Shown in pieces: positions 25,687-52,443 of a stretch of 64,000 bases of DNA. The position numbers were made by a program, and so were the translations under genes. Each line of letters opens with the position of its first letter. The first letter of the stretch is position 1. The DNA is from Verrucomicrobiota bacterium (GTDB taxonomy: Bacteria; Verrucomicrobiota; Verrucomicrobiia; Limisphaerales; UBA8199), in NCBI GenBank assembly GCA_049518415.1, contig JBEKRX010000031.1, forward strand, positions 2,359 through 66,358, given 5' to 3'. The notes beneath the pieces were generated by a model. The model was not told where the DNA came from and ran no database searches. It saw only the letters and a program-made list of their open reading frames with translations.

Positions 25687-26640
25687 ATGAACGCTCCCCA
25701 AAAACCACGGACCGCGAGGAGTAACCCGCAGAACACGCAGAACACGCGGAATTCAGAACCCTCCCATCTGCCTTTCCGCGTATTCAGCGTATTCCGCGGT
25801 TGCTTCTTCGGCTGCCCCCTGCCTTTCCGCGTATTCAGCGTGTTCTGCGGGTACTTCTTCGGTTGCGCCCTGGTGCTCGCCGCCTTCGGTTCCGCGGCCG
25901 CCGACCCTCGCTTTGCCGACCCCAAGACCTGGTTGCAGGGTCTAAGCAATCAGTGGAACGCCACCTCGCCGGCCCCAACCAATGTCCCTCCGACCAACGC
26001 TGCTCCCCTGACCTCCGACCTCCGACCTCCAACCTCCGCCCCCCCGGCCTCCGGATCTAACACCAACGCCTTCTCCACCATGGACACCCTGGACGACAAG
26101 CACAAGCTGGCCCTGGGCGACCGCCTCAGCTTTCGCATTGTCGAGGACCAGGAAGACCCGAGGGAAACCCTCGCCCCCAAACCGCCTGTCCCCGTCACTG
26201 ATTCAGGCGATGTCGAGGTCCCCTACATCGGGCGGTTTCCGGCCGTCGGCAAGACCTGCAAACAGTTGGCCCGTGAAATCAGAACCGAGCTCGAGAAGAA
26301 ATACTATTACCAGGCCACGGTCATCATCGCCCTCGACCTGGTGACCAGGAGCGGCGGCCGGGTCTATCTCGTGGGCCAAGTGCGGGCCTCCGGGCCCGTT
26401 GAGATTCCGGGCGACGAGGTCTTCACGCTCAGCAAGGCCATCCTGCGCGCCGGCGGCTTCACCGAGTATGCGAACCAGCGCCATGTCAAAGTCACGCGCA
26501 ATGGGCGCGACGCCGCGAACAAAACGCAGACATTCATCGTAAACATGAACGAAGTCTTCGAGAAAGGCAAAACCGAAAGCGACATGAAACTCGAACCCGG
26601 CGACCTGATCTTCGTCCCCCGCCGGCTGGTCATCTTTTAG
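25687..26640 (+). CDS. Polysaccharide export protein (Wza / Poly_export + SLBB type)
   Basis: LALGDRLSFRIVEDQ...VTDSGDVEVPYIGRFPAVGKTCKQLAREIRTELEK.YY...VYLVGQVRASGPVEIPGDEVFTLSKAILRAGGFTEYA...LEPGDLIFVP. The start is uncertain because the first ~60 codons are repeat element copy A. Confidence 0.8.
   Translation: MNAPQKPRTARSNPQNTQNTRNSEPSHLPFRVFSVFRGCFFGCPLPFRVFSVFCGYFFGCALVLAAFGSAAADPRFADPKTWLQGLSNQWNATSPAPTNVPPTNAAPLTSDLRPPTSAPPASGSNTNAFSTMDTLDDKHKLALGDRLSFRIVEDQEDPRETLAPKPPVPVTDSGDVEVPYIGRFPAVGKTCKQLAREIRTELEKKYYYQATVIIALDLVTRSGGRVYLVGQVRASGPVEIPGDEVFTLSKAILRAGGFTEYANQRHVKVTRNGRDAANKTQTFIVNMNEVFEKGKTESDMKLEPGDLIFVPRRLVIF
25724..25867 (-). repeat. 9-mer palindromic element, copy A (inverted relative to B-D, with a partial internal duplication)
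   Basis: ccgcagaacacgcagaacacgcggaattcagaa...ctgcctttccgcgtattcagcgtattccgcggttgcttcttcggctgc, followed by a second ctgcctttccgcgtattcagcgtgttctgcgg. Confidence 0.85.
26008..26040. repeat. Heptamer array cctccga x4 inside the Wza-like ORF (PLTSDLRPPTSAPP)
   Basis: Read directly from the sequence. Same unit as in 24425-24455. Confidence 0.8.
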
Positions 26641-26806
26641 CGTTGACGGTAAGCCGGGTTCCGGCCGCCTTGAACCATTGGCCTGAACCCTGGCTCCTGT
26701 GAGCCTGGCTAAAATAGCGACTACTCGGCGAGTAGATTCGCGCCAAACGAAAAGAGGCCCGCGAATTGACCGGCACGAAGTGTCGGCTGCCCTCTGACGT
26801 CACTCT

Positions 26807-27616
26807 ATGGTCAAGGCGCATTTTGAGACAACCTATGAGGCCCGGGGGGTTCTTGACTCGAGCCTCGAAGCCGTGAAACAACTCATAACTGACTTCGCTG
26901 CGCGGCGCATCCTGGAAGTCGGAGGTGGTGCTCACCCTTCACTCGGCCCGGATTACATTGCCGCACGAGGCCTCGAGTACACCGTGAACGACGCGCGCGA
27001 AGAGGAATTAATGAAGGCCGATTCGACCTATCACAAGCTCCGCATGGAACTTGGCACTGAGGAACCGACGGCACTTTTCAAAGGGCGCTTTGATCTCATT
27101 TTCAGCCGGATCGTTCACGAGCATGTGTACAACATTCAGCGTTTTCACCAGACCATCCATTACATGCTGGCCGGGGGCGGCGCTGCAGTCCATTGCTTTC
27201 CGACATTGTACGCGCTTCCGTTTGTGATGAACAGACTCTTGCCCGAGTGCTCATGCGGCGGGCTTCTCAACTTCTTTGTTCCTGGCTTCACCGAAACACA
27301 TCGCCACTTTAGGGCCTATTACAGGTGGTGTCGTGGTCCCTCGCGCAGGATGATACGGCGGTTCGAGCGAGTTGGATTTGAGGTGGTCGAGTTTCGGGGG
27401 TACTTCGGTCATAGTTACTACCAAACGCGTATGCCCTTGCTCCATAAACTCGAGCGAGCAAAGGCGCGCTGGCTCGCCAAACATCCCATTCCCCTCTTAA
27501 CGAGCTTCTCTTGGGTTGTTTTGCGGAAGCGCAACGTTGATCCTGGAAGACGCATTAGCGACCTGCCCCCGCTCGGCGGAGTCGGCTCGAATCACGCCCC
27601 CGTGGATGTAATCTGA
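26807..27616 (+). CDS. Class I SAM-dependent methyltransferase (probable)
   Basis: ILEVGGGAHPSL (motif I-like), DLIFSRIVHEHV and AGGGAAVHCFP. The assignment is moderate. Confidence 0.55.
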   Translation: MVKAHFETTYEARGVLDSSLEAVKQLITDFAARRILEVGGGAHPSLGPDYIAARGLEYTVNDAREEELMKADSTYHKLRMELGTEEPTALFKGRFDLIFSRIVHEHVYNIQRFHQTIHYMLAGGGAAVHCFPTLYALPFVMNRLLPECSCGGLLNFFVPGFTETHRHFRAYYRWCRGPSRRMIRRFERVGFEVVEFRGYFGHSYYQTRMPLLHKLERAKARWLAKHPIPLLTSFSWVVLRKRNVDPGRRISDLPPLGGVGSNHAPVDVI

Positions 27617-27620
27617 CCGC

Positions 27621-29807
27621 ATGCAGCCTCCTAATTCTGACAATTCCGTCTCCGATGTCCAGGGCGCCCTCCCGGCTCGCGCTTTGGTGCCGGGCAACGG
27701 CTACGTCGACGTCCCGGCCTATCCTGTCTCCCCGCCGGCCTTGCGCTTCCGCCGATATCTCATCTTGCTCCGCAAGAAATGGTGGATCGTACTGCTGAGC
27801 CTCTCGCTATGCAGTGTTCTGGCCGCCGCCTACATCTTGTGGTGGCCTGAGACCTACGTCTCCTATGCCCACCTTTGGAGCATGGGCAGAACTGGCCTCC
27901 GCCTTCCCGAGGGCGGCACCTACGAGGAAGACGCGCAAACCTCCGGCGGCACCCAGGTCGAATTGCTCCAGAGCGGCAGGATGAATGAACGCGCTTTTAA
28001 CCGGATCGTGAGCACCCTCCACCTCCCCGTTCCCACCAATTCCGAGGGCCTGCCTGAACCTGTCAAGATCCGCGTCTCCCAGCTCCCCAAGAGCGCCGTC
28101 TTCGAGATCAAGGCCACGGGCCCAAACGACTCCTATACTCGCGCCTTCCTCGATGCCACTATTGATGAGTTCCTCGCCTTCAAACGCGAGATTCGCGCCA
28201 CTTCAGCCGGTGACACCTATACCTCCGTCTCGGAGCAGATCACCAAACAGGAAACCGACCTCAAAAGCGGCCACGACACCCTCACCGCCTACATGCGCGA
28301 CAACAACGTCGCCGTCCTCGAGGAGCAGGCCAAGGCCGCCAGCGCCTATCTCACGCAGCTCCTCGCCGAATTCTCCCAGCTCAAATTGGAGCATCAGCTC
28401 CTCGAGGCCACCTCGACCGAGGGCCTGTGGGCCCTGGCCGGCCTCACCAATGCCCTCGCCGGCGCTCCGGACCCCCGGAGGCTGGCCGACCCGGCCATGC
28501 CCTCCGCCAGCCCGCCCCCCGAATTCCTCGGCGCCCAGCAGGAACTCGAGAAGCTCCGCATCATGCGGACCCGGCTCAGCAAACATCTCCGGCCGGAACA
28601 CCCCAAGATTGTCAAACTGGACGAGGAGATCTCCCGGGGCGAAAAACTGGTCGAATTCCTGAGCAAACAGAGCCGCGATCAGCTTGCCAACGCGAGGCAG
28701 ACCGTCAAGTTGAAGCTCGACCGGATCCAGGAGACGATCAAAGAATGGGAAGCTAAGGTCAACAGCGCCAGTGAACGTATTGCGCAGTACCAGCGCCTTA
28801 AACTCAATGTCGACCGCCTTCAGGGCCTTCACGAGCGCCTGCTCGGCCTCCTCCAGACGGTCGATGTCACGCGCAACCTCGACCAGGAGAACATTACCAT
28901 CCTGGATCGCGCCTCGGCGCCGAGGCGGGACAAGTCCTCGGTCCCATTCGTCCTCGCGCTAGCCATTTTCCTGGGCCTGGGCGGTGGCCTCGGGTTGGTC
29001 TTCCTCGTGGAAGTCTTGAATGACCGAGTCATGTCGCTGGAAGACCTGAACGGGCGATTCAATGAGTGGGTCGTTGGCCAGGTCCCCGAAGTCGGCAACG
29101 CGAAGAAGAAAAAAAGACCCGCCTTGCTGGATGCGGACGACCGCCGGCACATCTTCGCCGAATCTTACCGCAATATGCGCTCGGCCCTGTTCTACGCCGC
29201 AGTCCCGGAAGAAAAGCCCAAGGCCCTGCTGATCACCAGCGCCATCCCCCGTGAAGGCAAATCTACCGTGGCCGCCAACCTGGCCCGGGCCATCGCCTTT
29301 GCCGGCTCCCGGGTCCTGCTCGTGGATGGCGACCTGCGCCGCGGACTCCTGCACGAACTCTTCGAGCTGCCCCAGGAGCCGGGCTTCGCCGACCTGCTCA
29401 CCCAGGGCGGGGACCTGGCCCGATTCGTCGTGCCCACCTCCGTGCCCAACCTCTCCCTCCTGCCCCGGGGCAAACCGGTGGGCAACTCGGGCGAACTCTT
29501 CCTCGGGGCCGGGTGCGACCGGGTGCTGGCGCAAATCCGTGAGCAATACGACTGCGCCATCATCGACAGCATCCCCGTGTTTGCCGCCGATGACACCACC
29601 AGCCTGGCGCCGAAGGTGGACGGCGTGCTCCTGGTGGTGCGTGGCTCTTATGCGGGCAGCCGGACGATCCGGCGGGCCATGGAATTGCTCTACGAACGGC
29701 AGGCCAAAATTATGGGGCTGGTTTTCAACCGCGCCAACAGCGCCTCCCGCTCATACGAATACTACAAATACGCCGATTACTACCACTCAGCGGGGAAGGA
29801 CCACTGA
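27621..29807 (+). CDS. Polysaccharide co-polymerase / BY-tyrosine autokinase (Wzc/GumC-EpsG type)
   Basis: N-terminal Wzz-like TM + coiled-coil region and a second TM. P-loop kinase domain ITSAIPREGKSTVAANLARAIAFAGSRVLLVDGDLRRG. Tyr-rich C-terminus YEYYKYADYYH. Confidence 0.85.
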   Translation: MQPPNSDNSVSDVQGALPARALVPGNGYVDVPAYPVSPPALRFRRYLILLRKKWWIVLLSLSLCSVLAAAYILWWPETYVSYAHLWSMGRTGLRLPEGGTYEEDAQTSGGTQVELLQSGRMNERAFNRIVSTLHLPVPTNSEGLPEPVKIRVSQLPKSAVFEIKATGPNDSYTRAFLDATIDEFLAFKREIRATSAGDTYTSVSEQITKQETDLKSGHDTLTAYMRDNNVAVLEEQAKAASAYLTQLLAEFSQLKLEHQLLEATSTEGLWALAGLTNALAGAPDPRRLADPAMPSASPPPEFLGAQQELEKLRIMRTRLSKHLRPEHPKIVKLDEEISRGEKLVEFLSKQSRDQLANARQTVKLKLDRIQETIKEWEAKVNSASERIAQYQRLKLNVDRLQGLHERLLGLLQTVDVTRNLDQENITILDRASAPRRDKSSVPFVLALAIFLGLGGGLGLVFLVEVLNDRVMSLEDLNGRFNEWVVGQVPEVGNAKKKKRPALLDADDRRHIFAESYRNMRSALFYAAVPEEKPKALLITSAIPREGKSTVAANLARAIAFAGSRVLLVDGDLRRGLLHELFELPQEPGFADLLTQGGDLARFVVPTSVPNLSLLPRGKPVGNSGELFLGAGCDRVLAQIREQYDCAIIDSIPVFAADDTTSLAPKVDGVLLVVRGSYAGSRTIRRAMELLYERQAKIMGLVFNRANSASRSYEYYKYADYYHSAGKDH

Positions 29808-29950
29808 CGGCGGACGAAGGACTACGAGACTACTGACCACTGACCACTAACCACGGACTACTGACTACGGTGGTCCGTGGTCAGTGGTCCGTGGTCCCGT
29901 GGTTCCGTGGTCCGTGGTCCGTGGTCCGTGGTCCGTAGTCCCTTGTCCCT
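29798..29950. repeat. Heptamer-array hairpin (tgaccac/ggactac arm against ggtccgt arm) starting in the wzc stop codon
   Basis: 29851-29870 pairs with 29875-29894 (18 Watson-Crick + 2 G-U pairs, loop tggt). The flanking arrays extend the complementarity. Confidence 0.85.
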
Positions 29951-29953
29951 TAT

Positions 29954-30403
29954 ATGCGAGATTATACGAAAATTGAAGCCTGGAAGCTGGCGGACGACCT
30001 GACGGTGGCAGTTTATTCATGCACCCGGTCTTTCCCTAGGGAAGAATTGTACGGGCTGACAAGCCAAATCCGGCGTGCGGCCTATTCTGTTCCGGCAAAT
30101 ATCGCTGAAGGCTCCTCACGAGAGAGCAAGCGCGATTACCTGCACTTTCTCTACATTGCAAGAGGCTCCTTGACCGAAACGCAGTACTTCATCCATCTCG
30201 CGCGCCGCCTGGGCTATCTATCAGAAGCCGACGCCGAGCAGCTCCACGCGCAGACGAAGTCCACTTTTGCATGCCTGCACGGCCTGATTCGAGCCGTTGA
30301 GAAAGAAACCGGGAGATTAAGCACCGTGGTGGCCGCGATCACCAGTGCCGTCGTCCTCTGCCTTTGGTCCCGTGGTCCGTGGTCCGTGGTCAGTAGTCCG
30401 TAG
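29954..30403 (+). CDS. Four-helix-bundle protein (23S rRNA intervening-sequence protein / Avd-like family)
   Basis: EAWKLADDLTVAVYSCTRSFPREELYGLTSQIRRAAYSVPANIAEGSSRESKRDYLHFLYIARGSLTETQYFIHLARRLGYL is a near-consensus match to this family. The last ~20 codons run into repeat R'. Confidence 0.85.
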   Translation: MRDYTKIEAWKLADDLTVAVYSCTRSFPREELYGLTSQIRRAAYSVPANIAEGSSRESKRDYLHFLYIARGSLTETQYFIHLARRLGYLSEADAEQLHAQTKSTFACLHGLIRAVEKETGRLSTVVAAITSAVVLCLWSRGPWSVVSSP

Positions 30404-30410
30404 TCCCTTC
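30365..30410. repeat. Heptamer array R' (ggtccgt units); direct repeat of 29905-29950
   Basis: 30386-30410 is complementary to 29816-29840 (24 pairs with one bulge on each side). Confidence 0.8.
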
Positions 30411-30419
30411 CGCCCCCCC

Positions 30420-31877
30420 ATGCTCGAGCTCGCGCTCACTCTGCAACTGCTCTTTTTCCTGGCGATCGCCTTGGTTTTCTTCGGTTCACGCCAAGCCTCG
30501 ATTTTTCACCCCTGCACGGTTTACCTGGCCTTCCACGGAATTGTCTTTGTCATTAGGCCCCTTTTTGCTCATTACCTTCACTTCGACCATTCCTGGCAAT
30601 ATATGGCCTTCTGGCCCAGGGATGAGGATTGGCTCAAGACGCTTGTTGTTACCTCATTAGCCTTGGGGGTATTTGTCACCGCCTGTCTCTCCGCTTCTCG
30701 GGGCCTGCCCAGCCAAGTGGGGCCTGCTGCAACCCTGCCTACGCCCGAACTCAGAACCGCGTTCCTGCTCACCGGTGCTCTGCTCGCCCCATTGCTCGCT
30801 TATTCTATTTATGCGACCAGACACGGAATTGCCGGTGAGCGTGTCGGCGCCGTTTACATCATGACGGGCACCAGCGGTTATGTGAACGACGCTCAGCACA
30901 TGGCCGTCCCACTGCTGGCGATTTTCGTCTGGGCTTTTGCCTTTAGGTGGTGGACCCTCGTTCCGGTCACATTGTATCTTGCCTACCGCGCCTGGTTTGG
31001 ATGGTCCCGCTGGACGATAATAATCTGCGTGTTCATGCTGTTTTTGGTTTATTGCTGGCACCAGCGCCGCAAGTGGCTGCCCGTTCGCTTGCTTGCCCTC
31101 TTGCTGCCCCTGTTCATCCTTTTCAACTGGCTAGGTGACAACCGGGATGTATTTAAGAGCCTTCTCCAAGGTCAAGAACCAGCTCCCAAAGTCCTGTCCG
31201 GCAACGGCAGCGCCGCGGAAAAGATCCGGACCAAGCTCGACAAACACGACCTCGCCAGTTTCGACTTTCTGACTTACGTATTGGCTGCGGTTCCCGAACG
31301 AACCGGAACCTACAATTACGGTCTTCAGTACCTGCAGTTATTCACCGAACCCATCCCTCGGAAACTATGGAAGGGGAAACCGGCCGGCGCGCCCTTCGGG
31401 CGGCTGAACCTCAATGCCTATGGCAATTTCCTCGGCTTGACGGTCACTCTCCTGGGGGACGGGTGGCTTAGTGGCGGCTGGGTCGGCTTGGTCCTGACCG
31501 TCGGGGCGGCGGGATGGGCCTTGGGACGCGCTCACCGTTGGTTCTCGCGCCACCAGGCCAATGCTTTTATCGCCTTCTCGTACTGCGGGATTTTGGCAGC
31601 GACCATTCAGCTCTATCGCGACGGCGGCATTTCCGTTTTCAAATTCCTCCTTTGGCTCCTCCTGCCCATCCTCATCTGGAGGGCGGTGTATCGGACGATG
31701 AACGCGCAATCCCCGTCCGTGTCTGCAAGCCCTGCAACCGGCGCCTCTTACCCTCTCCCTCTGCGCTACCGCCCTGGGCTCTCCGCCCCCGTCCGCTCCT
31801 ACCGCGGACGCCCGCGGCTCAGTTGGAGAAGAATTCAACGCCGCTGGCCGCCACCCGCCCGATGGCGCCAGGTGTGA
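30420..31877 (+). CDS. Polytopic membrane protein, putative Wzy-type repeat-unit polymerase
   Basis: ~10-12 hydrophobic segments and a large loop region. It sits in a locus that otherwise lacks a polymerase. ATG 30420 (MLELALTLQLLFFLAIALVFF) was chosen over the ORF-track start 30345, which lies in the repeat. The C-terminal ~55 aa look like read-through. Confidence 0.5.
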   Translation: MLELALTLQLLFFLAIALVFFGSRQASIFHPCTVYLAFHGIVFVIRPLFAHYLHFDHSWQYMAFWPRDEDWLKTLVVTSLALGVFVTACLSASRGLPSQVGPAATLPTPELRTAFLLTGALLAPLLAYSIYATRHGIAGERVGAVYIMTGTSGYVNDAQHMAVPLLAIFVWAFAFRWWTLVPVTLYLAYRAWFGWSRWTIIICVFMLFLVYCWHQRRKWLPVRLLALLLPLFILFNWLGDNRDVFKSLLQGQEPAPKVLSGNGSAAEKIRTKLDKHDLASFDFLTYVLAAVPERTGTYNYGLQYLQLFTEPIPRKLWKGKPAGAPFGRLNLNAYGNFLGLTVTLLGDGWLSGGWVGLVLTVGAAGWALGRAHRWFSRHQANAFIAFSYCGILAATIQLYRDGGISVFKFLLWLLLPILIWRAVYRTMNAQSPSVSASPATGASYPLPLRYRPGLSAPVRSYRGRPRLSWRRIQRRWPPPARWRQV

Positions 31878-31911
31878 GGGCGGCAACCCGCCACCCAATT
31901 GCCCGCGTTTA

Positions 31912-32073
31912 ATTCCAATGAGCTTCCAAGATGAGACTAAGGCGCGCAGGATTTTGGGCCTCTGGCGAGGCGCGAGCGAGGCGCATACCCGCAGCGGTCT
32001 GTAACGAGCGAGCAACGAAGCCAGAGGCCCAAAAGACAAACGAATTAGTCTCATCTTGGAAGTGATTTGGAAT
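31912..32073. repeat. ~160-nt compound inverted repeat (long hairpin)
   Basis: cttccaagatgagactaa (31923-31940) is perfectly complementary to ttagtctcatcttggaag (32045-32062). The inner helix attttgggcctctggc (31951-31966) against gccagaggcccaaaag (32020-32035) matches 15/16. The outer helix is attccaa/tttggaat. Confidence 0.85.
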
Positions 32074-32424
32074 AAGCCCTTTGATGTGTCTGTGCCGGCT
32101 GATCAGCATGCTTCTCCTGGCCGTGGCTTGCCACCTTCGGGCAGGATCGCCCTCCTCTGGAGTAATTTCGGCCCGTACCACCATGCGCGAGCCTCCGCCC
32201 TCCGGAAACTGGCCCGCCCCGCCGAGGTTTTTCCCATCCAGATTGGTTCCGAGTCAACGGTCTATGACTGGAGTCGTGCTCCAGGCGCCCTGGCGGCTCG
32301 CACAAAGGCCGGGAGCGGGCCAGCCCGCTGGCAGCTATCGAGCCTTGTAGTTCCGCTCTTGACCGACACTATTGACGAGAGCCACGAGCATAGTGCACCT
32401 CCTTTTCGGCGTCAAAAGTCATGA
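32056..32424 (+). pseudogene. Possible N-terminal glycosyltransferase remnant
   Basis: Only RIALLWSNFGPYHHARASAL...VFPIQIGSES resembles a GT N-terminus. The rest is low-complexity and there is no catalytic region. Confidence 0.2.
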
Positions 32425-33116
32425 ACAACCTACCTGAATCAGTTCAAGCCAGCAGGCACTATATTGGCCAACGAGGCCAGACGTACGCACGGCAGCACAT
32501 GCAGCTTAGCGACGTCAACTGGCTGGGTTACGCCATTGACGCAAATTCCTTCAGACCGTACATGCAACAGGATGACTACCTCTTGGACTTCGGTTGCGGG
32601 AACGGCGGCATGCTCCGCGAGCTCTCGCGCCACGTCAAGGAGGCCGAGGGGCTCGAGGTCAACCCAGCGTCCCGGGCGCTGGCGCTTGCTACGGGGCTGA
32701 GAATCTACTCCTGCCTCTCCGAGTTACCGGGGCTCCCAACATACCACAAGGTCGTCAGCAATCACGTGCTTGAGCACGTAAGGGACGTGTACAGCACTCT
32801 GTTGGCATTGCGCACGAACCTGCGCGAAGGAGGAGTCCTGGTTGCGAAGTTGCCGATAGACGACATCCGGCAGCGGAGACAGCGGCGTTGGGTCAAGGAC
32901 GACCCCGACCACCACCTATGGACCTGGACTCCCCGTCTGTTTGCTAACGTCCTCATTGAGTGCGGCTTCGACGTCTCCGAGTGCCGGATTATCAGCCAGG
33001 CATGGCACCCAAGGCTCTTTCCATTTTACAGGACAGCTTTGAGATCGCCTCTCTTGTGGCTGCTCTCCGTCCTCAGGAACCGGCGGCAGTTGCTCGCTGT
33101 GGGGCGGAAGCCCTGA
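32421..33116 (+). CDS. Class I SAM-dependent methyltransferase
   Basis: LLDFGCGNGGMLRELS (motif I), VVSNHVLEHV, GGVLVAKLP. Confidence 0.8.
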   Translation: MNNLPESVQASRHYIGQRGQTYARQHMQLSDVNWLGYAIDANSFRPYMQQDDYLLDFGCGNGGMLRELSRHVKEAEGLEVNPASRALALATGLRIYSCLSELPGLPTYHKVVSNHVLEHVRDVYSTLLALRTNLREGGVLVAKLPIDDIRQRRQRRWVKDDPDHHLWTWTPRLFANVLIECGFDVSECRIISQAWHPRLFPFYRTALRSPLLWLLSVLRNRRQLLAVGRKP

Positions 33117-33177
33117 CCCGCCCGGTACGCCCCTAGCTGGGGGGTGGCGGAGGTCCTGCTGCCTCTCACGATGGACT

Positions 33178-34317: not shown

Positions 34318-34584
34318 CGCAATAGGCTCGTGGGCCGTGAATTGGGCCGGTTGGTTACCGAAGCCGCGTCCTGTGGCCGGCCCCCGCTGGCCTCGAGGCG
34401 CCGCGGCTGCGCCGGCACACGCTGGTTCAGAGCCGCGCAAAAGGCTGTATATTCGAGCCCTTTGGTTTACGCGGGTCGGCCGAGCTAATGCTGAGCCTGT
34501 CCGCCAACGAACTGGAGGGTGCGGCTTCCAAGCGCATCAGCTGACCCCTCACGGCCCAGGGCACAAAAAGCCAGCCCCGCGTTG

Positions 34585-40050: not shown

Positions 40051-40053
40051 TCT

Positions 40054-40908: not shown

Positions 40909-40996
40909 CAAATTAGCCCGAAGATCATCACCCAGCGCTGCTGCTTTTTGCCATATCGGTTTCCGCGTGTGTGATTAGCAACAAGGCACAAGAGGA

Positions 40997-44437: not shown

Positions 44438-44642
44438 CAGGGTTTGCGCTCCGGGGGACCTGCCATCTGGTTCCCTACGAAGTCATCGTCTCCGAGGCGA
44501 TAAACGTACCCATTACAGGCTTCCAGTCTGCTCCGGGATGTGAACACCGCCGCTTCGGGCTTTCTTCGCCAGAGCCGCACTGTGCACGTTGCTCTGCTCG
44601 CCCTAGCGAAACACTGCCCGCGGTCCATTATGTCAGAACGCC

Positions 44643-45986
44643 ATGCGAACCCGCGCCAATGACCGGTCGGGCGCGGGTGCTGCGCCCCAAATGCAAGCCG
44701 CCCGTCCGTTCCGCTGGATCGTGAGCCAGGAGGGTTCCCGCGAAAGTTACAGCGTTCCGCTGTCTTTTCGCCGCCTGAATATGTTGCGGTTGTTCTACGC
44801 CGACATCTGGTGCCGCCTAGGACGAGGGATTCTGAGGCACGGTCCCGCGGGGACGCGAGCCCTGGCAACGCGATTCCACTCGGACATTCCTAGGGATCAA
44901 GTGATCTCATTTAGCTGGGCCGCCATCCTCGACCGTGCCGCGCTTCACTTCCAGCGTCGGCGCTACTCGCCGGCGGAGCTCGGGGACCACTACTGCCGCT
45001 TTGGCCGCTGGTTTGCCCGGCGCGTGCGCGAGCACTTGAAGACACTCGAGCTGGAGCCCCAGCGGGATCTGTTCTTTGGCTTCAACACTAACTGCCTCGA
45101 AACCCTCGAACTGCTCGAGGACCGGCGGGTCTTTGCCGTCGTCGACCAGGTGGACGCCGCGCGCGTCCATGAAGAAATGGTCCTGGCGGAGGCGGAGCTT
45201 TGGCCCGGCTGGGCGCCGGCGCCAGGCCGGATGCCGGAGAGTTACTGGGCGAGATTGAAGGCGGAGTGGGCCGCCGCCGACCTCGTGCTTGTGAATTCGG
45301 AATGGTCGGCGAGCGCGCTGGTCCGGCAGGGTGTGCCCAGGGCAAAAATCATCACTGTTCCGCTGGCGATCGATCTGTCGCAGGATCAAGAACTCGAGCC
45401 GGTTACGCCGTCCGGAACGTTGAGAGTCCTCTGGCTGGGGAGCGTCGTACTTCCCAAGGGGATTCAGTACCTGGTCCAAGCGGCCCGGCTTCTGCAAGGC
45501 CAGGATATTGAATTCCTTGTGGCTGGGCCAATCAGGATTTCGCATCGAGCCGTCCAAACCTTTCCACCGAATATGAAGCTCCTCGGGCGCGTGACCCGGG
45601 ACAAACTAGGCGAGGTGTATCGGCAAGCCCACGTTTTTGTGCTGCCGACGATTTCGGATAACTTCCCCATGACACAGCTCGAGGCGATGGCTCACGGATT
45701 GCCCGTCGTTATCACGCCAAATTGCGGCCGCGCAGTCACCGATGGGGCCGACGGCTTCATCGTCCCAGCCCGTGACGGTCAAGCCCTCGCCGATGCCCTG
45801 GCGCGGCTCCATAATGACCGGCCCTTGCTGCGAGAGATGTCTCGCAGCGCCTTGACCACCGTTCGCAAGTACGATCTGCCCAGCAACGCCATTCTCATTA
45901 ACAACGAAGTCGCTAAACACCACCCGCTTTGGCGCAGCGACGCCACCAATGAAAATCACCATCTGGGGCATCAACTACTCGCCTGA
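44643..45986 (+). CDS. Glycosyltransferase family 1 (GT4-type)
   Basis: LRVLWLGSVVLPKGIQYL, VFVLPTISDNFPMTQLEAMAHGLPVVITPNCG...GADGFIVP. Confidence 0.8.
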   Translation: MRTRANDRSGAGAAPQMQAARPFRWIVSQEGSRESYSVPLSFRRLNMLRLFYADIWCRLGRGILRHGPAGTRALATRFHSDIPRDQVISFSWAAILDRAALHFQRRRYSPAELGDHYCRFGRWFARRVREHLKTLELEPQRDLFFGFNTNCLETLELLEDRRVFAVVDQVDAARVHEEMVLAEAELWPGWAPAPGRMPESYWARLKAEWAAADLVLVNSEWSASALVRQGVPRAKIITVPLAIDLSQDQELEPVTPSGTLRVLWLGSVVLPKGIQYLVQAARLLQGQDIEFLVAGPIRISHRAVQTFPPNMKLLGRVTRDKLGEVYRQAHVFVLPTISDNFPMTQLEAMAHGLPVVITPNCGRAVTDGADGFIVPARDGQALADALARLHNDRPLLREMSRSALTTVRKYDLPSNAILINNEVAKHHPLWRSDATNENHHLGHQLLA

Positions 45987-47259
45987 GCTGACGGGAATTG
46001 CGCCATACAACCGGGCCCTGTGCGACTTCCTGAACTCGCGCGGGCACCGGGTGCGGATGGTCACCTCGTTTCCCTACTATCCAGCTTGGCAAAAGCGGCC
46101 CGAGGATCGGCGCCGGCTTTACCGCACTGACAACGTGTGGGGCGTGCCAGTCCATCGCTGCTATCATTATGTGCCGGGAGGCCCTACCTCGTTAAAGAGA
46201 ATTCTTCATGAAAGCTCTTTTGTGCTTGCCTCGTTCCTGCGGTTGGTGACGCTCCCGCGTCCGGATGTCTATGTGGTGATTTCGCCGCCGTTGCTCCTGG
46301 GAGCAGCCGCCTGGCTGCTGACGCGGATCAAGCGGGCGCCGTTTGTCTTCCATGTCCAGGACCTCCAGCCTGATGCCGCGTGTGGTTTGGGCATGCTCAA
46401 GCGCGGCCTGTTTACCAGGGCGCTTTATGCCCTGGAAGGCTTTGCTTATCGAAAGGCCGCGCGCGTCTCGGGCATTTGCCGGGGAATGCTCGAGGTGTTT
46501 CAGCGCAAAGGTGTGCCGCCGCGGAAAATTGTCTATTTTCCCAATGGAGTGGAGTTCACGAGCAAGGAGCACCTCCCGCCGCCAGGGCGCTTTCGGGCCC
46601 GGCAGGGCTTTGGCCGCGATGAGTTCCTGGCCGTCTATTCGGGGAATCTCGGCGTGAAGCAGGGCTTGGAGATTTTGATCGAAGCCGCGCCTTTGATCCG
46701 CGACCCCAGGATACGAATCGTCATCTGCGGAGACGGCGCCGAACGAGAAAGGCTGGCGGCGGAAATCAGGCTCCGCCAAATCACCAATGTGCGGCTCATT
46801 CCCTTGCAGCCGGAAGAACGCTATCTGGAGATGCTCACGGATGCCGATCTGTGCCTCATCACCCAAAAGCGGGGCGCTGGCGCCTTTTTCCTCCCGAGCA
46901 AAGTGCTCCGCAGCCTGGCCATGTCCCGGCCAGTACTGGCCGTCGCCGACGAATCGAGCGAACTCACGCGGGCCCTCAGGGCAGGGGGCTTTGGCATTAC
47001 TGTCGAACCGGACGACCCGCGCAGCTTGGCCGGGGCGCTGGAGAACCTGGCGGAAGACAGGCAGCGGCTCCGCCGGTTCGGCGATTCCGGCCGTGAGTTT
47101 GTGAAGCAGTTCGAAATGACCCGCGTCCTCGAGCAGTTTCAGAATGAACTTCAGTGGCTCGTCAAGGGCGAGACGCGCGTTCCCACCTTCCCGGCGCCTC
47201 TCTCGGGGGCCCCTGCTCCGGAACGAAGATCGACGGGCGTCCAGGAGGTCGGCGGGTAG
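45949..47259 (+). CDS. WcaI-family glycosyltransferase
   Basis: MKITIWGINYSPELTGIAPYNRALCDFLNSRGHRVRMVTSFPYYPAWQ is the characteristic WcaI N-terminus. C-terminal GT1 domain. Confidence 0.85.
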   Translation: MKITIWGINYSPELTGIAPYNRALCDFLNSRGHRVRMVTSFPYYPAWQKRPEDRRRLYRTDNVWGVPVHRCYHYVPGGPTSLKRILHESSFVLASFLRLVTLPRPDVYVVISPPLLLGAAAWLLTRIKRAPFVFHVQDLQPDAACGLGMLKRGLFTRALYALEGFAYRKAARVSGICRGMLEVFQRKGVPPRKIVYFPNGVEFTSKEHLPPPGRFRARQGFGRDEFLAVYSGNLGVKQGLEILIEAAPLIRDPRIRIVICGDGAERERLAAEIRLRQITNVRLIPLQPEERYLEMLTDADLCLITQKRGAGAFFLPSKVLRSLAMSRPVLAVADESSELTRALRAGGFGITVEPDDPRSLAGALENLAEDRQRLRRFGDSGREFVKQFEMTRVLEQFQNELQWLVKGETRVPTFPAPLSGAPAPERRSTGVQEVGG

Positions 47260-47288
47260 AGCGCCCGGGCCGCCGCCGCCTTGAAACC

Positions 47289-48866
47289 GTGAACTCCACC
47301 GCATCCAACGGGTTTATTCCCCCCGAAACATCCACGACTGCCGGGCGCTGCTCTGGCCTGCGCGGCTCGGTCCTGATCGCCCTGTGCTGGGTTCCGTTGC
47401 TGAACTTGTTGCGAGTGGACTGGAGCGTCAACCCGGAATACGGTTTTGGTTGGTTTGTGCCCCCAATCGCCGTCGTACTGTTCTGGCTGCGCTGGCGCTG
47501 CCGGCCCGAACCGGAACCTGCCCCTGCCTCGACAGCCGCTATCCTGCTCGCTAGCGTGGCGCTGTTGTGCCTTCTCCCCCTCCGCCTGGTTGAAGAAGCA
47601 AACCCGGACTGGCGGCGGGCCTTTTGGTACCATGGCATCCTATTGTCCCTACTCTCCGCCGGCGTCTTTTGGCATCTGGGGGGCCGGCCCTGGGCAAGGC
47701 ATTTTGCCTTCCCTATCTGTTTCCTGCTCACTTCCGTGCCATGGCCCGTGGGGCTGGAGGTTCTTGTCACCCAGCGGATGATGCGTTACGTAGCTGCTGT
47801 TACGGTGGAAGTCGTCGGGTGGTTGGGGATTCCAGCGGTGCGGAGTGGAAACGTCGTCGAGATCAGTACCGGCCTGGTGGGCATCGACGAGGCTTGCAGC
47901 GGGGTGAGATCCCTCCAAACTTCGGTTATGATCGGGTTTCTCCTGGGCGAAATCTATCGACTGAAAGCCAGTCGGCGGGGTTGGCTTCTCCTGGGCAGTG
48001 TCGTGCTCGCATTCTTCATCAACGTCGGCCGAACTTCCACATTGACCTGGAGCGCCTCGCGCCAGGATTTCGGGCGAATGAATGCATTGCATGACGCCGC
48101 CGGCTTGGCGGAGGTTTTCCTGGCCCTGGCCGGCATTTGGACCCTCGCCATCCTGCTTCGACAAAAGACGCCTGTCCAGCACCAGGCCTTGGCCAGCAGC
48201 ACCGCCACCCGCATCCTGGGAACGCCCGTGCTGGTCGCGGTGTTCGGGTGGCTCTTGTCGGTGGAGGCCATCAATGAAACGTGGTACAGGGCGCACGAAG
48301 CCGAGCCGCTCAAAAACATTCAATGGACAATCAATTCGCGCACCAATTGGCCGGGGTGGCGAAAAGTTCCGATCCCCGAACGGTCTCTTGCCATTCTACG
48401 CTGCTCAGATGCTGCAAGCTACTCCTGGCGGGATGCCAGCGGCGGTGAGTGGAGGCTCAACCACCTCCGCTGGCCACCGAGCAGGAACTCGGCCCACCTG
48501 GCGAAGGGGCACCGTCCGGACATTTGTCTGCCCTCAGCCGGGTGGACTGTGGTCGAGCAGCGGGGGAAGATATCCATTCCTGTGCATGGACTGAACTTCG
48601 CCTTGCAACATGGCGTTTACCAGAAAGGCGGCCAGCCGGCGAACGTCTTCTACGGCCTCTGGGAAAACGATTCCGGCCGTGGCGGCCAGGATCTCCCGGA
48701 AAATAACACCGTGGCCAACCGTTTGTCTGCTGTGCTCCACGGTAAGCGGAATCGCGGCCAGCAAGTCCTGGAAATCCTGATTACCGGCGCCTCCTCTCCG
48801 TTGGAAGCACTCACCGCCCTCCAGGAGACGCTGGGCCAACTCATCGAGCGGCATAAGGATCGGTAA
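47289..48866 (+). CDS. Exosortase fused to an EpsI-family domain
   Basis: Polytopic N-terminal half with exosortase catalytic motifs GIDEACSGVRSLQ (Cys), FINVGRTS (Arg), ALHDAAG (His). The C-terminal half carries the EpsI-type HRPDICLPSAGW. GTG 47289 is the first plausible start after the WcaI stop. Confidence 0.8.
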   Translation: MNSTASNGFIPPETSTTAGRCSGLRGSVLIALCWVPLLNLLRVDWSVNPEYGFGWFVPPIAVVLFWLRWRCRPEPEPAPASTAAILLASVALLCLLPLRLVEEANPDWRRAFWYHGILLSLLSAGVFWHLGGRPWARHFAFPICFLLTSVPWPVGLEVLVTQRMMRYVAAVTVEVVGWLGIPAVRSGNVVEISTGLVGIDEACSGVRSLQTSVMIGFLLGEIYRLKASRRGWLLLGSVVLAFFINVGRTSTLTWSASRQDFGRMNALHDAAGLAEVFLALAGIWTLAILLRQKTPVQHQALASSTATRILGTPVLVAVFGWLLSVEAINETWYRAHEAEPLKNIQWTINSRTNWPGWRKVPIPERSLAILRCSDAASYSWRDASGGEWRLNHLRWPPSRNSAHLAKGHRPDICLPSAGWTVVEQRGKISIPVHGLNFALQHGVYQKGGQPANVFYGLWENDSGRGGQDLPENNTVANRLSAVLHGKRNRGQQVLEILITGASSPLEALTALQETLGQLIERHKDR

Positions 48867-49030
48867 AGGGAAGCCTTTGGATCCCCAGCGTGGGCTGCCT
48901 GGGGGAGGGGACCTTTTGCCTGCAGGCGATAGCCTGGACGGTTTCGCAAGGCGATCTCCGTCATCGGCCCAGCGAGCCCGGAAGAGGCGGTGCGCGTGCT
49001 CCGGAAGGAGTTGGAGAAACTGATTGTTTT

Positions 49031-50695
49031 ATGAAAAAGCTCTTCATTGTCATCCTGTCCTTGTGCGTGATCTTCGTGACCGGCTTTGCCGGTTACCGCG
49101 GTTACAAGATCTGGAGACAGAAGCATTTTGTGAAAATGGCGCGGGCCTTCATTGTGAAGGGCGACGCCGCCAATGCGGTGCTCTGCCTGCGCCAGGCGCT
49201 GGCGTCCAACCGCAACAACCTGGAGGCCTGCCGCCTGATGGCTGACTTCGCGGAATTGGCCGGTTCGCCCCAGGCGGTGCTCTGGCGCAGCCGGGTCGTG
49301 GATTTGGAACCGAACTCGCTGACCAACCGGCTGGCCCTGGCAAGGACCGCGCTGGCCGCCGGCGACGCCGACCTCGCCAACAAAACGCTGGACGGTGTGG
49401 ACGAGGCCGGCAAGAAAACGGCCGTGTTTCAGAGGGTGGCCGGCGCGGCGGATCTCGCGGCCAGACGGTTCTCGGAGGCCGAAACACATTTCTCCGAGGC
49501 CGCGCGCCTGGAACCGGCCAACCCCGTCTCGCAGTTGAACCTCGCCACGCTCCGCCTCAGCAAGAGCGATCCGGCGGCGTCAACTGAGGGGCGGGCGGTG
49601 TTGCAGGCGCTCTGCACCAACCTGGCGGTCCGCTGTGATGCCCAGCGCCAACTCACCCGGGACGCCTTGCGGCACACGAACTTGCCCGGCGCATTCGCCT
49701 TTTCCCAGGAGTTGCTCAAGGATACCAACTCGGTCTTCGCCGACCGGATGCTGCACCTGGATATTCTGCGCGCGACGACCAATGCCCAGCAGGAGAGTCT
49801 CCTGTCCGCGTTGCAAAAGGAGTCGGTCAACAACCCGGCCAAGGCCTCCGAGGTGGCCAAGTGGATGTTGAGGACGACCGGCAAGCCGGAGGCGGCGCTG
49901 GCCTGGATGGGCGCCCTCCCGCCTGCGACCCGCACCAACCTGCCCGTGCCAATGATCCAGGCGGACTGTTACATCGCCCAGAAGAATTGGACCGCTCTCC
50001 AAACCAATTTGGCGCAACAGAACTGGTCCGACCTGGATTGCCTGCGGCTGGCCTGCCGCGCCCGCGCCTTCAAGGAACAGAACATGACCGCTACGGCCAA
50101 AACGGAGTGGACCGCGGCGATGAAAGCGACCGGGAACCGCCGCGAGCTCCTGGTCCAACTCCTGAACACGACCGGCTTATGGAACTGGCCGCAGCAGCAG
50201 GAGGATGTGCTTTGGGCCATCGTCAATACCTACCCCAGGGAGAGTTCCGCGGTCCGGGTGTTGTCGAGCCGGCTCTATGCGGCCGGCAGGACCCGCTCGT
50301 TGCTGACGCTTTATGGCGTCGCGCTGCAAAATGACCCGGGCAACCCCGGCCTGATGAACAACCTGGCGATGACTGCCCTCCTGCTGGAGTCGTGGGATAA
50401 AAAGCCGCACGACCTGGCACGCGAAGCCTACGCCAAGGCGTCCACGAACGCGGCCTTCGTCTCCACTTACGCCTATTCCCTGCTGGTGCAGCAGAAGCCG
50501 GCGGAGGCGCTGAAGACGATCGAGCAGCTCAGCCCGCAGCAACTGGAGGATCCCGGCATCGCTGCTTATTATGGCTTGATCCTGAAGGGCGCCGGCAACG
50601 CGCCGAAGGCCAAATCATACCTGGACCTCGCCTCGAAGGCCAGGTTGCTGCCCGAGGAGCAGAAGCTCGTCGAAAAAGCCCGCAGAGGAACCTGA
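49031..50695 (+). CDS. TPR-repeat protein following the exosortase (PrsT-like context)
   Basis: MKKLFIVILSLCVIFVTGFAGY anchor and TPR-like helices throughout. Any PrsT relationship is inferred from position only. Confidence 0.7.
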   Translation: MKKLFIVILSLCVIFVTGFAGYRGYKIWRQKHFVKMARAFIVKGDAANAVLCLRQALASNRNNLEACRLMADFAELAGSPQAVLWRSRVVDLEPNSLTNRLALARTALAAGDADLANKTLDGVDEAGKKTAVFQRVAGAADLAARRFSEAETHFSEAARLEPANPVSQLNLATLRLSKSDPAASTEGRAVLQALCTNLAVRCDAQRQLTRDALRHTNLPGAFAFSQELLKDTNSVFADRMLHLDILRATTNAQQESLLSALQKESVNNPAKASEVAKWMLRTTGKPEAALAWMGALPPATRTNLPVPMIQADCYIAQKNWTALQTNLAQQNWSDLDCLRLACRARAFKEQNMTATAKTEWTAAMKATGNRRELLVQLLNTTGLWNWPQQQEDVLWAIVNTYPRESSAVRVLSSRLYAAGRTRSLLTLYGVALQNDPGNPGLMNNLAMTALLLESWDKKPHDLAREAYAKASTNAAFVSTYAYSLLVQQKPAEALKTIEQLSPQQLEDPGIAAYYGLILKGAGNAPKAKSYLDLASKARLLPEEQKLVEKARRGT

Positions 50696-50726
50696 TCCGT
50701 AGGGCGGGGCAACCATCGAACCGCAA

Positions 50727-50771
50727 AAGAGCCCTGAGGGCCGCCGCGCTCTCAGGGCTCTTGCGTTTATT
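50727..50771 (+). terminator. Terminator-like hairpin after the TPR gene
   Basis: aagagccctgag-N12-ctcagggctctt followed by gcgtttatt (weak U-tract). Confidence 0.4.
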
Positions 50772-50780
50772 CGGCGAGCT

Positions 50781-50873
50781 GCAGCCGAAGAAGGAACCGC
50801 AGAATACGCTGAATACGCGGAAAGGCAGATGGCGGAGTTCTGAATTCTGCATATTCGGCGTATTCTGCGGTTC
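50781..50873 (+). repeat. 9-mer palindromic element, copy B
   Basis: gaaccgcagaatacgctgaatacgcgg ... ctgcatattcggcgtattctgcggttc. The outer 16 bp are perfectly complementary. Confidence 0.9.
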
Positions 50874-50946
50874 ACTCCCCCGCCCCACCCAACCCACAGG
50901 CATCCCTATCTGTGGCATGTGTCCAGTCGGTGGCCTGCGGAATCTC

Positions 50947-50985
50947 TGTCTGAATTGTGATCTAAGATGTCCGATTGCTAGATAG
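50947..50985 (+). promoter_or_regulatory. PEP-CTERM upstream element, orphan copy C1
   Basis: tgtctgaattgtgatctaagatgtccgattgctagatag. No gene follows it. Confidence 0.45.
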
Positions 50986-51126
50986 TTTGTGGTGGCGGGT
51001 TGCCGCGGCCTGCCGTCATCACAGGCCGCGCGCTTCCAGCTTCCAGCAGCACCACCATCCCCTGTGCCCCGCTCGCGAACAAAGGGGAACTGATCCCTGT
51101 AGCCGGGCCAACCATCGAACCGCACA

Positions 51127-51171
51127 AGAGCCCTGAGGGCCGCCGCGCTCTCAGGGCTCTTGCGTTTACTC
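51127..51171 (+). terminator. Terminator-like hairpin (duplicate of 50727-50771)
   Basis: Same stem, followed by gcgtttact. Confidence 0.3.
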
Positions 51172-51179
51172 GGCCGAGC

Positions 51180-51283
51180 CGCAACCGAAGAAGCAACCGC
51201 AGAATACGCTGAATACGCGGAAAGGCAGACGGTCCCGATTCGGAATCGGGAAATTCCGCGTATTCCGCGTGTTCTGCGGTTCG
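51180..51283 (+). repeat. 9-mer palindromic element, copy C
   Basis: ccgcaaccgaagaagcaaccgcagaatacgctgaatacgcggaaaggcaga...ccgcgtattccgcgtgttctgcggttc. Confidence 0.9.
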
Positions 51284-51356
51284 CTCCTCCGCCCCACCCA
51301 ACCCAAAGACATCTCTATCTGTGGCATGTGTGCGGTCGGTGGCCTGCTGAATCTCT

Positions 51357-51397
51357 GTCTGAATTGTGATCTAAGATGTCCGGCGTTTGGATAGACG
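51357..51397 (+). promoter_or_regulatory. PEP-CTERM upstream element C2
   Basis: tgtctgaattgtgatctaagatgtccggcgtttggatagac. 142 nt before ATG 51540. Confidence 0.5.
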
Positions 51398-51539
51398 CGC
51401 ACGCGCGGTTATGGGATAAGTAAATCAGAAATCCTCGGGTTTTGCTCGGGAACGGGGCTGGCTTGGCCCCGCCGAACCGAGAGCGGGCACGAAACAGGCC
51501 GGCGAAATGCCGGCGGCCATTGACAAAACAGTCGAATCT

Positions 51540-52229
51540 ATGAAAAGGGCTTACAAACTGGCGGCAGCGCTTGCTCTCCTGATGAGCGTCGTCTCGGCGC
51601 GGGCGGCTATGTTAGCTAATACGGGAGCCGCTGTTGATGCTGATGGTAGCGACAAAAACTGGACGCTGGCCTCCGTGGTTCCGGGCGACAAGCTGGGCGA
51701 CGATCCATCTGTACCATACGGACTGAGCCTGCCCAATGCCTATGTCGTCAATGACGATGGCAACTTTCCGTTTAACGGCTATTGGCTGCGCAACAGTCTC
51801 GCGTCCAGGTGGATCACTTATGCCGCTCCAATGTACACGGGGGGAGATATAGGCCGCACGTTCGATTACCGACTGGCTTTCACGGCGACGGCGGATGGTG
51901 TCGTCAATTTCCGATGGGCATCAGACAATTCAAGCGAGGTGACACTCGACGGCACCAAAATCGCCAACAATGGCCAACCTAACCCAAATAACTATACGAC
52001 CTTCAACAGTTGGTCATACGGGACATTCAACGTGACGAAAGGCACAGGATACACATTGGACGTCGACGTGTTGAATATCGGCCAGGACTCCGGCAACCCC
52101 ACCGGCATGCGGTTCGAGGTTGTCCCCGAGGCCAGCACGATGTTCGCCGGCGCCGGCGCGCTCGGGCTCGTTCTCCTCGGCCTCGGTGTCCACTCGAAAC
52201 GCTCGGCCGTTCTCCGAATGGGTAAGTAA
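51540..52229 (+). CDS. PEP-CTERM sorting-domain protein 1
   Basis: Signal peptide MKRAYKLAAALALLMSVVSARA. C-terminus VVPEASTMFAGAGALGLVLLGLGVHSKRSAVLRMGK (PEP motif + TM + basic cluster). Confidence 0.85.
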   Translation: MKRAYKLAAALALLMSVVSARAAMLANTGAAVDADGSDKNWTLASVVPGDKLGDDPSVPYGLSLPNAYVVNDDGNFPFNGYWLRNSLASRWITYAAPMYTGGDIGRTFDYRLAFTATADGVVNFRWASDNSSEVTLDGTKIANNGQPNPNNYTTFNSWSYGTFNVTKGTGYTLDVDVLNIGQDSGNPTGMRFEVVPEASTMFAGAGALGLVLLGLGVHSKRSAVLRMGK

Positions 52230-52348
52230 GCCCCTCGCAAAGCAGTTCTTTCCGCTCGACGGGCATGCCCAACGGCCTGCCTGTTTGCTTTTCAGCCTGA
52301 GCCAGGTTCCCGCGTGGCCGGACCCCTTCCCGCCGTTGCTGCGCCTGG

Positions 52349-52443
52349 CCGCAACCGAAGAAGCAACCGCGGAATACGCTGAATACGCGGAAAGGCAGAC
52401 AGCGGAGTTCTGAATTCCGCGTATTCCGCGTGTTCTGCGGTTC
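52349..52443 (+). repeat. 9-mer palindromic element, copy D (between convergent PEP-CTERM genes)
   Basis: ccgcaaccgaagaagcaaccgcggaatacgctgaatacgcggaaaggcagacagcggagttctgaattccgcgtattccgcgtgttctgcggttc. Confidence 0.9.

Follow-up and report, generated by a model that had tools for sequence, protein, structure and literature searches.

We argue herein that the palindromic elements found at four places in a 64,000-nucleotide (nt) stretch of a soil and peat Verrucomicrobiota genome (hereafter, the window) belong, with a probability of about 0.7, to a dispersed family of gene-less relatives of cassettes that carry a GxxExxY gene. This probability applies to what the elements are, as judged from their sequences, and not to how they are mobilised. 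The reading hinges on the arms of the elements. The same arms flank a gene for a GxxExxY protein of ~135 amino acids, a member of the PD-(D/E)XK group (PF13366/TIGR04256), in the genome of the window, in three congeners of it and in members of two further families within the order, and the window elements are therefore best read as gene-less relatives resembling REPINs (hairpins formed by paired repetitive extragenic palindromic (REP) sequences) or miniature inverted-repeat transposable elements (MITEs).

The window is C31:2359-66358 of genome G000, a draft assembly of a member of the Limisphaerales (6.4 Mb in 133 contigs, 63% G+C, 94.6% complete), and the locus is 100% identical to the window in two further assemblies. 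In what follows, G001, G002 and G003 denote three congeners of G000, other G numbers denote related genomes, and C numbers denote contigs of G000. The family was searched for in G000 using an nhmmer profile made from full copies, and the repeat was compared across a sample of 61 related genomes. On contigs outside the window, genes were called with a crude codon-usage gene finder, according to which G000 is ~84% coding.

Each element consists of a ~9-bp outer stem, a 28-nt arm, a variable loop of ~11-31 nt and a complementary arm. The arm is itself composed of an anchor, AACCGCGG, and ~2.5-3 tandem 9-mers with the consensus CGCGGAATA (Tandem Repeats Finder (TRF) period 9). A first-pass annotation, made from the letters of the window, had described four copies built from tandem 9-mers, with complementary halves whose outer 16 bp are perfect in copy B. 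Direct reading and a search with the core pattern bear out this description, the arms of the window copies being 89-93% complementary and their spacers 22-31 nt long. The position given for the unit was right, but its extent was slightly too small: the outer stem, CCGAAGAAGC ... CNCTCCTCC, had been missed. This stem lengthens the unit by ~9 bp, and copy A therefore begins near 25716. The copies and the repeats associated with them are as follows:

25716-25867, minus strand (inverted relative to copies B-D): copy A, with arms at 25724-25751 and 25774-25801 and a loop at 25752-25773
25825-25852, minus strand: third arm of copy A, from a 51-nt partial tandem duplication
50705-51382, plus strand: local tandem duplication of ~400 bp (50705-50973 versus 51104-51382)
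50781-50885, plus strand: copy B, with arms at 50795-50822 and 50845-50872 and a loop of the GGCGGAGTTCTGAA type
51180-51295, plus strand: copy C, with arms at 51195-51222 and 51254-51281
51233-51251, no strand assigned: 19-nt perfect palindrome TCCCGATTCGGAATCGGGA, nested in the loop of copy C
52349-52455, plus strand: copy D, with arms at 52365-52392 and 52415-52442

With up to three mismatches allowed, the 28-nt core GAATACGCTGAATACGCGGAAAGGCAGA matches the window five times, copy A being matched twice because of its partial duplication (TRF period 51, 2.1 copies, 25768-25872); the mean over 100 dinucleotide shuffles of the window was 0. As single strands, all of the window copies fold into one long stem of 28-37 bp, whichever strand is taken, with folding energies of -49.5 to -70 kcal/mol and z-scores of -4.9 to -9.5 versus shuffles. 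They thus have the layout of a REPIN, that is, two inverted units separated by a short spacer and able to form a hairpin. The gene-bearing form is absent from all four, whose loops of 22-31 nt hold no open reading frame (ORF) of the GxxExxY family. A scan of the elements against Rfam 15 gave nothing at the gathering score, and the only matches at E <= 1 were generic hairpin matches to microRNA precursor models (20-27 bits versus cut-offs of 79-137).

In G000 as a whole, the nhmmer search recovered 32 loci, ~17 with both arms and the remainder (~15) solitary arms or short hairpins, for a total of ~52 arms. All but two of these loci (30/32) are intergenic, the two others being copy A, which lies in a wza-like ORF, and a hairpin on C77 that runs into the 3' end of the GxxExxY gene there. 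The copies fall into two subfamilies. Members of the first (on C39, C34, C2, C1, C41, C37 and C78, together with copy C of the window) are 87-99% identical and carry the 19-nt perfect palindrome TCCCGATTCGGAATCGGGA in the loop, as do most copies outside the window. Members of the second (copies A, B and D of the window and those on C5 and C57) are 71-86% identical and have other loops, the loop type of A, B and D being rare elsewhere in G000. Copy C alone among the window copies combines an outer part like that of B and D with the loop type common elsewhere in the genome, and this combination argues for exchange between copies. Nine copies outside the window take a longer form of ~205 nt, in which conservation reaches beyond the unit, by ~85 nt on its left side and ~16 nt on its right (83-95% identity across full-length copies), and beyond which the flanks are unrelated. 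Copies that are 95-99% identical occur in unrelated contexts.

The repeat was matched in 21 of the 61 related genomes, including members of a second family of the order. Across genera, the 28-nt arm is 96-100% identical, and the arm with ~10 nt beyond it is 92-100% identical; matches over the whole unit are just 71-79% identical because the loops differ. Arms (up to three mismatches) numbered 48 in G001, 107 in G002, 51 in G003 and 28 in G021, while a reversed-pattern control gave 0. Among the species of the GTDB, exact arms occur almost only in metagenome-assembled genomes (MAGs) of the Verrucomicrobiota/Limisphaerales type, with a few labels that are evidently wrong. That all copies might stem from local duplication within the exopolysaccharide (EPS)/PEP-CTERM locus, a possibility the first-pass annotation had set against a family, has some appeal in that B and C lie in the ~400-bp tandem duplication and the loop type of A, B and D is rare elsewhere, but it is refuted, to all practical purposes, since copies occur on numerous further contigs and at least 20 other genomes contain them.

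G000 has just one PF13366 gene (C77:18521-18952; TIGR04256, 138 bits), which is placed between two family hairpins, one at C77:18432-18510 and the other at 18903-18981. The arms of these hairpins are CCCGCAGAGCACGCAGACCACGCAGAA and its complement, and the last codons of the gene (KKRPQNTQTTQN) run into the downstream arm. In G040 a hairpin directly follows a gene whose product ends ...LLLNFGHYP..., as is typical of GxxExxY proteins. Both G040 and G039 have the order hairpin-gene-hairpin, with arms of the AACCGCGAAATACGC type, and G039 has in addition two GxxExxY genes in tandem, with arms in between. In G001, G002, G003 and G021 the layout is that of a right (R) arm, TTCCGCGTATTCCGCGTGTTCCGCGGTT, followed by ~45 nt, the gene from ATG to stop, 4 nt and a left (L) arm, AACCGCGGAATACGCGGAATACGCGGAA. 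Of ten GxxExxY matches in G002, three have an arm within 100 nt, against a calculated expectation of ~0.05 from the density of arms. The loci at which arms of this make, with an anchor and about three tandem 8-10-mers, flank a GxxExxY gene are as follows:

G000: C77
G040: L022/L109
G039: L107 and L206
G001: L108/L208
G002: L114, L050 and L057
G003: L110/L095
G021: L112/L207

Moreover, the arms change with the protein that they flank. A comparison of 20 cassettes from the order shows arms of the AACCGCG/CACGGAATA type around proteins that share at least 61% identity with that of C77, and more distant GxxExxY proteins have self-complementary arms made of other 8-10-mers, such as CACAGAGG/CACGGAGG, CGCGAAGG and CAGGATTAA. 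Between cassette clades, both arms change together. Since the arm sequence shifts with the protein clade, arms and protein diversify together. Within the family, it is the sequence of the 9-mers itself that is conserved, as well as the structure, and this fits recognition by a protein.

The evidence from sequence comparison says that the units were copied and inserted as DNA, because near-identical copies stand in unrelated contexts, because one deleted cassette recurs at several loci of a congener, and because the insertion in the wza-like gene is absent from its orthologues. The deleted cassette is found in G002, where one specific internal deletion is shared by at least six loci in both orientations. 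Its first 6 codons are fused to the last ~38, with the junction MKTNLI|QNYLKATGFKLGLLVNFGHYPK... (MKTNLI|QNYLK...). Further size classes in G002, in which the arms stand 143 or 103 nt apart, likewise occur in several copies. In G001-G003 the arm-GxxExxY-arm unit is cargo of a larger element of ~0.45-0.75 kb with ~23-nt terminal inverted repeats (TIRs; GGGTGCGGGACAAAATAGTAACC, also cited as GGGTGCGGGAC) and target-site duplications (TSDs) of 8-9 bp, such as CCTGAGGT and CGAAGGAAA. This larger element was located as follows:

G002: L026:5340-5800, L043, L070, L074, L086 and L069
G003: L095
G001: L208

The relation between the solo hairpins and the cassettes is not one of simple deletion. Solo hairpins have the order L-loop-R, which is the opposite polarity to that of the gene-bearing R-gene-L form, and they are therefore not simple internal deletions of the latter; their counterparts are instead the complete hairpins found on either side of the gene in C77, G040 and G039. 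We infer that the solo hairpins would be non-autonomous, REPIN/MITE-like derivatives that spread by way of a DNA hairpin or cruciform, either through the GxxExxY nuclease acting in trans or by riding other vehicles. That it is the nuclease which spreads them in trans is possible, but we regard it as rather doubtful. After insertion, the elements, which look like selfish DNA, would mostly be passengers. Transcribed copies would form long double-stranded stems, which might be RNase III or stability sites, although no such role is needed to explain the elements, and if the RNA structure affected genes nearby, it would do so only incidentally.

A fuller proposal is that the GxxExxY nuclease and the tandem-9-mer arms together make up a self-contained minimal mobile or selfish element, in which the nuclease would recognise its own arms as a hairpin or cruciform and would promote the copying and insertion of both the cassette and the solo hairpins. 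We put this forward tentatively and consider it unlikely as it stands. If true, it would amount to a partnership like that of REPINs with REP-associated tyrosine transposases (RAYTs) but built on a different enzyme fold, and would give a function to the large and widespread 'GxxExxY protein' family.

Several observations weigh against our main account. The GxxExxY protein of C77 is a diverged form, and over the entire unit its arms share only ~45-59% identity with the window copies; a cognate GxxExxY gene for the canonical arms is absent from the 94.6%-complete assembly of G000; and G009 has 12 arm matches and no GxxExxY match. Neither TSDs nor TIRs were seen at the ends of the long or short forms in G000. 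Spread of the deleted cassette in the congeners can be put down to the surrounding element with its TIRs and TSDs, which points to a DDE-type transposase acting in trans and not to the nuclease. The opposite polarity of solo and gene-bearing forms belongs here as well. Pairing among 51 distinct near-consensus hairpins (1245 Watson-Crick pairs) hardly differs from that obtained with shuffled arm partners (1236.5 +/- 6), compensatory change among these hairpins is not significant (z ~1.4), and no clear strand bias of G:T versus A:C mismatches was found in them. Lastly, PDDEXK_3 is listed as 'function unknown' (PMC3424549), and no solved relative of it was found by sequence. In the literature searched for GxxExxY, PDDEXK_3, PF13366 and TIGR04256 no paper deals with repeats, and the cassette is undescribed there; nor was any published description of the repeat family found, in agreement with what the first-pass annotation had supposed.

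Among the alternatives, the one that fares best is that the elements are structures selected by the host, in RNA or DNA, as terminators, RNase III sites, 3'-end stabilisers or insulators, the link to a small selfish gene being secondary. Very stable stems form on both strands, most copies are situated past the 3' end of at least one neighbouring gene (of the 15 full copies, 9 separate tandem genes, 4 convergent genes and only 2 divergent genes), a run of five T follows the stem on the reverse strand of the canonical subfamily, and G000 makes similar hairpins from heptamer arrays directly past the stops of genes. The surroundings of the window copies speak otherwise. Copy B begins 19 nt past the terminator hairpin of a tetratricopeptide repeat (TPR) gene, and copies B and C both lie downstream of this canonical terminator (50727-50762) or its duplicate, as the first-pass annotation had noted; the ~400-bp duplication unit comprises the TPR terminator hairpin, an element copy (B or C) and ~100 nt downstream, includes the region upstream of the first PEP-CTERM gene, and is ~87-96% identical outside the element loop. 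Copy D does lie, as described, between convergent PEP-CTERM genes (the products end in VPEP or VPEA followed by a transmembrane segment and KRS, and are PEP-CTERM-like), 120 nt past the stop of the plus-strand gene, but it is beyond the terminator of the minus-strand gene itself (52477-52507). A terminator scan called these canonical sites at 50727-50762 (plus strand) and 52477-52507 (minus strand) and none at the elements. Moreover, the T run of the window copies is broken up, just ~9 of 15 copies are oriented relative to the upstream gene as a terminator would be, and one copy is inside a coding region. A terminator role is thus not supported, and since structure alone leaves the 96-100% identity of 28 nt across genera unexplained, host selection seems an unlikely account of the family.

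The kinship with REP, BIME (bacterial interspersed mosaic element) and MITE families proposed by the first-pass annotation holds insofar as this is a dispersed, almost wholly intergenic palindromic family; the RAYT link that it had suggested looking for does not. Under the classical account, the hairpins would be mobilised by a RAYT, an IS200-like Y1 HUH transposase acting on single-stranded hairpins. The inverted arms and spacer are indeed REPIN-like in architecture, REPs are known from Verrucomicrobia such as Opitutus terrae (PMC3733652), and G000 has 18 PF01797 matches. Two of the scanned Y1 ORFs score best on the model NF047646, 'REP-associated tyrosine transposase', and two pass an IS200/IS605 model. 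However, the scores on the RAYT model, 52 and 71.5 bits, are under the NCBI cut-off of 80, no arm was found within 4 kb of any of the 18 Y1 ORFs, the arms carry no GTAG or CGTC tag, and the gene that they flank, in six genomes or more, is another one, that for GxxExxY. As for the 19-nt palindrome of the loops, only one copy, with two mismatches, occurs within 2.5 kb of a Y1 ORF (684 nt from C45:46238-46687). We consider mobilisation by a RAYT improbable.

Little better can be said for the elements as MITEs of a DDE-type insertion sequence, with the arms or the surrounding sequence serving as TIRs for a conventional transposase in trans. This account draws on the congeners, where arm-GxxExxY-arm lies inside an element with TIRs and TSDs and deleted versions are multi-copy. 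However, the arms are internal and not terminal in that element, the element itself is absent from G000, and the long and short forms of G000 end, as said, without TIRs or TSDs. In addition, no two arms in G000 form a pair 0.5-5 kb apart, and none encloses a transposase gene. This account, too, is improbable for the window elements, which we continue to read as gene-less relatives of GxxExxY cassettes.

Two further candidates were rejected. A small-protein reading was prompted by the fact that both strands contain stop-free frames and that one congener copy has an ATG before a charged and then a hydrophobic stretch; it was dropped because the arms are 96-100% identical at the nucleotide level across genera, without variation of the synonymous type. 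An integron attC-like site was also considered: the outer ends AAC...GTT misfit RYYYAAC/GTTRRRY by eye, no integrase search having been made.

Copy A is a special case. As the first-pass annotation had reported, it lies in the 5' part of a Wza-like ORF:

25687-26640, plus strand: Wza-like gene, with Poly_export and SLBB domains

The bases 25724-25867 of copy A (144 nt) supply 48 codons that are in frame and stop-free, so that the ORF reads MNAPQKPRTARS-[48 element-encoded residues]-ALVLAAFGSAAA|DPRFADPKTWLQ. Within a signal peptide, these codons follow the n-region (MNAPQKPRTAR) and precede the h/c-region (ALVLAAFGSAAA|DP), and without them the N-terminus is that of an ordinary signal peptide. 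The suggestion that the repeat makes a spurious N-terminal extension therefore appears unlikely. The start codon, ATG 25687, is 4 nt past the stop of the upstream gene, which is homologous to the gene upstream of the G001 orthologue, and the context '...TTTTGA NNNN ATG' and a start with MNA or MRA are seen again in the nearest metagenomic relatives. In orthologues at 53-70% identity the signal peptide is a plain one that lacks the copy A stretch, as in L130, whose N-terminus reads MRSTLLLLFVSLLAAPTQA|ADTS...AADPHAADPQ. In the two closest relatives (77% and 68% identity), different repeats occur at the same site after the ATG, again in frame and stop-free (L127:820-1080 and L128:436-720): (CAGTCCA)5, (TTTCAGCA)n and one solitary arm of opposite orientation. 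The site after the ATG looks like an insertion hot spot in the signal peptide. On this comparison, copy A is probably one of a repeated series of tolerated in-frame insertions into the n-region and not the product of a mis-called start, although as an alternative the Wza-like protein may start at an internal GTG.

Other repeats abound in the same genome. The 19-nt palindrome found in the loops, TCCCGATTC[G/C]GAATCGGGA, occurs in G000 in 215 exact and 307 near-exact copies (e.g., C21:91397-92163), often as inverted pairs 35-36 nt apart with conserved spacers; no partner gene was identified for it. It forms a separate, second REP/BIME-like family, which would fit the description of REPs as short palindromes in >100 copies. 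As arms of four-helix-bundle cassettes it has little to recommend it, just 12 of 307 copies being near PF05635 matches, of which G000 has 24. The Y1 (IS200/RAYT-like) ORFs of G000 form an unusually large set of 18 sites (e.g., C84:13215-13661 and C40:56639-57883), several of them at contig ends. A further dispersed family of tandem 9-mers, (CCAATACAG)n, with ~100 nt of conserved flanks, is found outside the window at C10:61663-61694, C42:16250-16281 and ~30 other sites of G000.

Heptamer arrays also form hairpins, two of which lie in the window at 24355-24459 and 29798-29941, with arms (GAGGTCR)n/(CCTCCGA)n and (GACCACT)n/(GTGGTCC)n; the first starts 7 nt past the stop at 24348, and the second overlaps the stop at 29807. 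G000 has 278 arrays of period 7, 208 of them intergenic. At 29954-30403, inside the EPS operon, is a four-helix-bundle gene of the 23S rRNA intervening sequence (IVS) protein family (TIGR02436/PF05635), bracketed by heptamer arrays at 29798-29941 upstream and 30365-30406 downstream.

The significance of the family lies in its partner gene, which belongs to a PD-(D/E)XK family without an assigned function and is not a Y1 transposase, and in the co-variation of arms with protein across genera. A role for GxxExxY proteins may accordingly be sought in binding or cutting the 9-mer hairpins that flank their genes. That intergenic DNA in soil and peat Verrucomicrobia is unusually rich in repeats may be due in part to this family. 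Copy A, together with the other repeats at the same site in its relatives, suggests that the n-regions of signal peptides can absorb such insertions. For the annotation of MAGs, hairpins of this kind create stop-free frames and can lie in real genes, and both start-codon calls and 'hypothetical' ORFs need care.

Of the systems already described, REPINs and REPs with their RAYT transposases (Bertels & Rainey 2011, PMC3116915; Nunvar et al. 2010, PMC2817692) offer close parallels. Like them, the elements are dispersed, extragenic and non-coding, have two inverted palindromic arms with a short spacer, have persisted vertically in a lineage, and flank a small gene, present in one or a few copies, that encodes an enzyme acting on nucleic acids. 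However, the gene flanked here is of the PD-(D/E)XK GxxExxY type and not Y1 HUH, no Y1 gene being flanked, and the arms are 28 nt of tandem 9-mers whose copies number in the tens, not the hundreds. One criterion for REPs is that either end bears a tetranucleotide, GTAG or CGTC, as a tag (Di Nocera et al. 2013, PMC3733652); the arms here begin with AACCGCGG and end with CCGCGGTT, with neither tag at the arm ends. The extragenic location is shared with REPs and BIMEs, but REPs are 20-40 nt long and present in >100 copies, whereas the unit here is 95-115 nt and has ~17 full copies. The cassettes built around 23S rRNA IVSs and IVS-like four-helix-bundle genes (PF05635/TIGR02436) likewise enclose a small gene in inverted repeats with a long stem; the elements here have no gene and lie outside rRNA, and their gene-bearing relatives are often flanked by two complete hairpins and not by one stem.

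Correia elements of Neisseria and the enterobacterial repetitive intergenic consensus (ERIC) or intergenic repeat units (IRUs) of enterobacteria are imperfect intergenic palindromes of ~100 nt that form long hairpins when transcribed. As MITEs, these share with the present family their size, location and palindromic nature and the status of gene-less relatives of a larger gene-bearing unit. The present elements differ in that no TSD is seen in G000, in that the arms are not terminal there (the conserved unit extends ~85 nt beyond the left arm), and in that the gene-bearing relative encodes no recognised transposase, GxxExxY not being a known one. In Rickettsia, palindromic elements (RPEs) reportedly lie in frame within protein-coding genes and are apparently tolerated there, much as copy A appears to be in the Wza-like signal peptide; however, sequence and lineage are unrelated, only one of ~32 loci is in-frame coding, and the insert is in a cleaved signal peptide and not in the mature protein. 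Thus, as far as sequence comparison can tell, the family consists of palindromic repeats of a known bacterial kind, and what appears to be new is the link of their arms to the GxxExxY gene.

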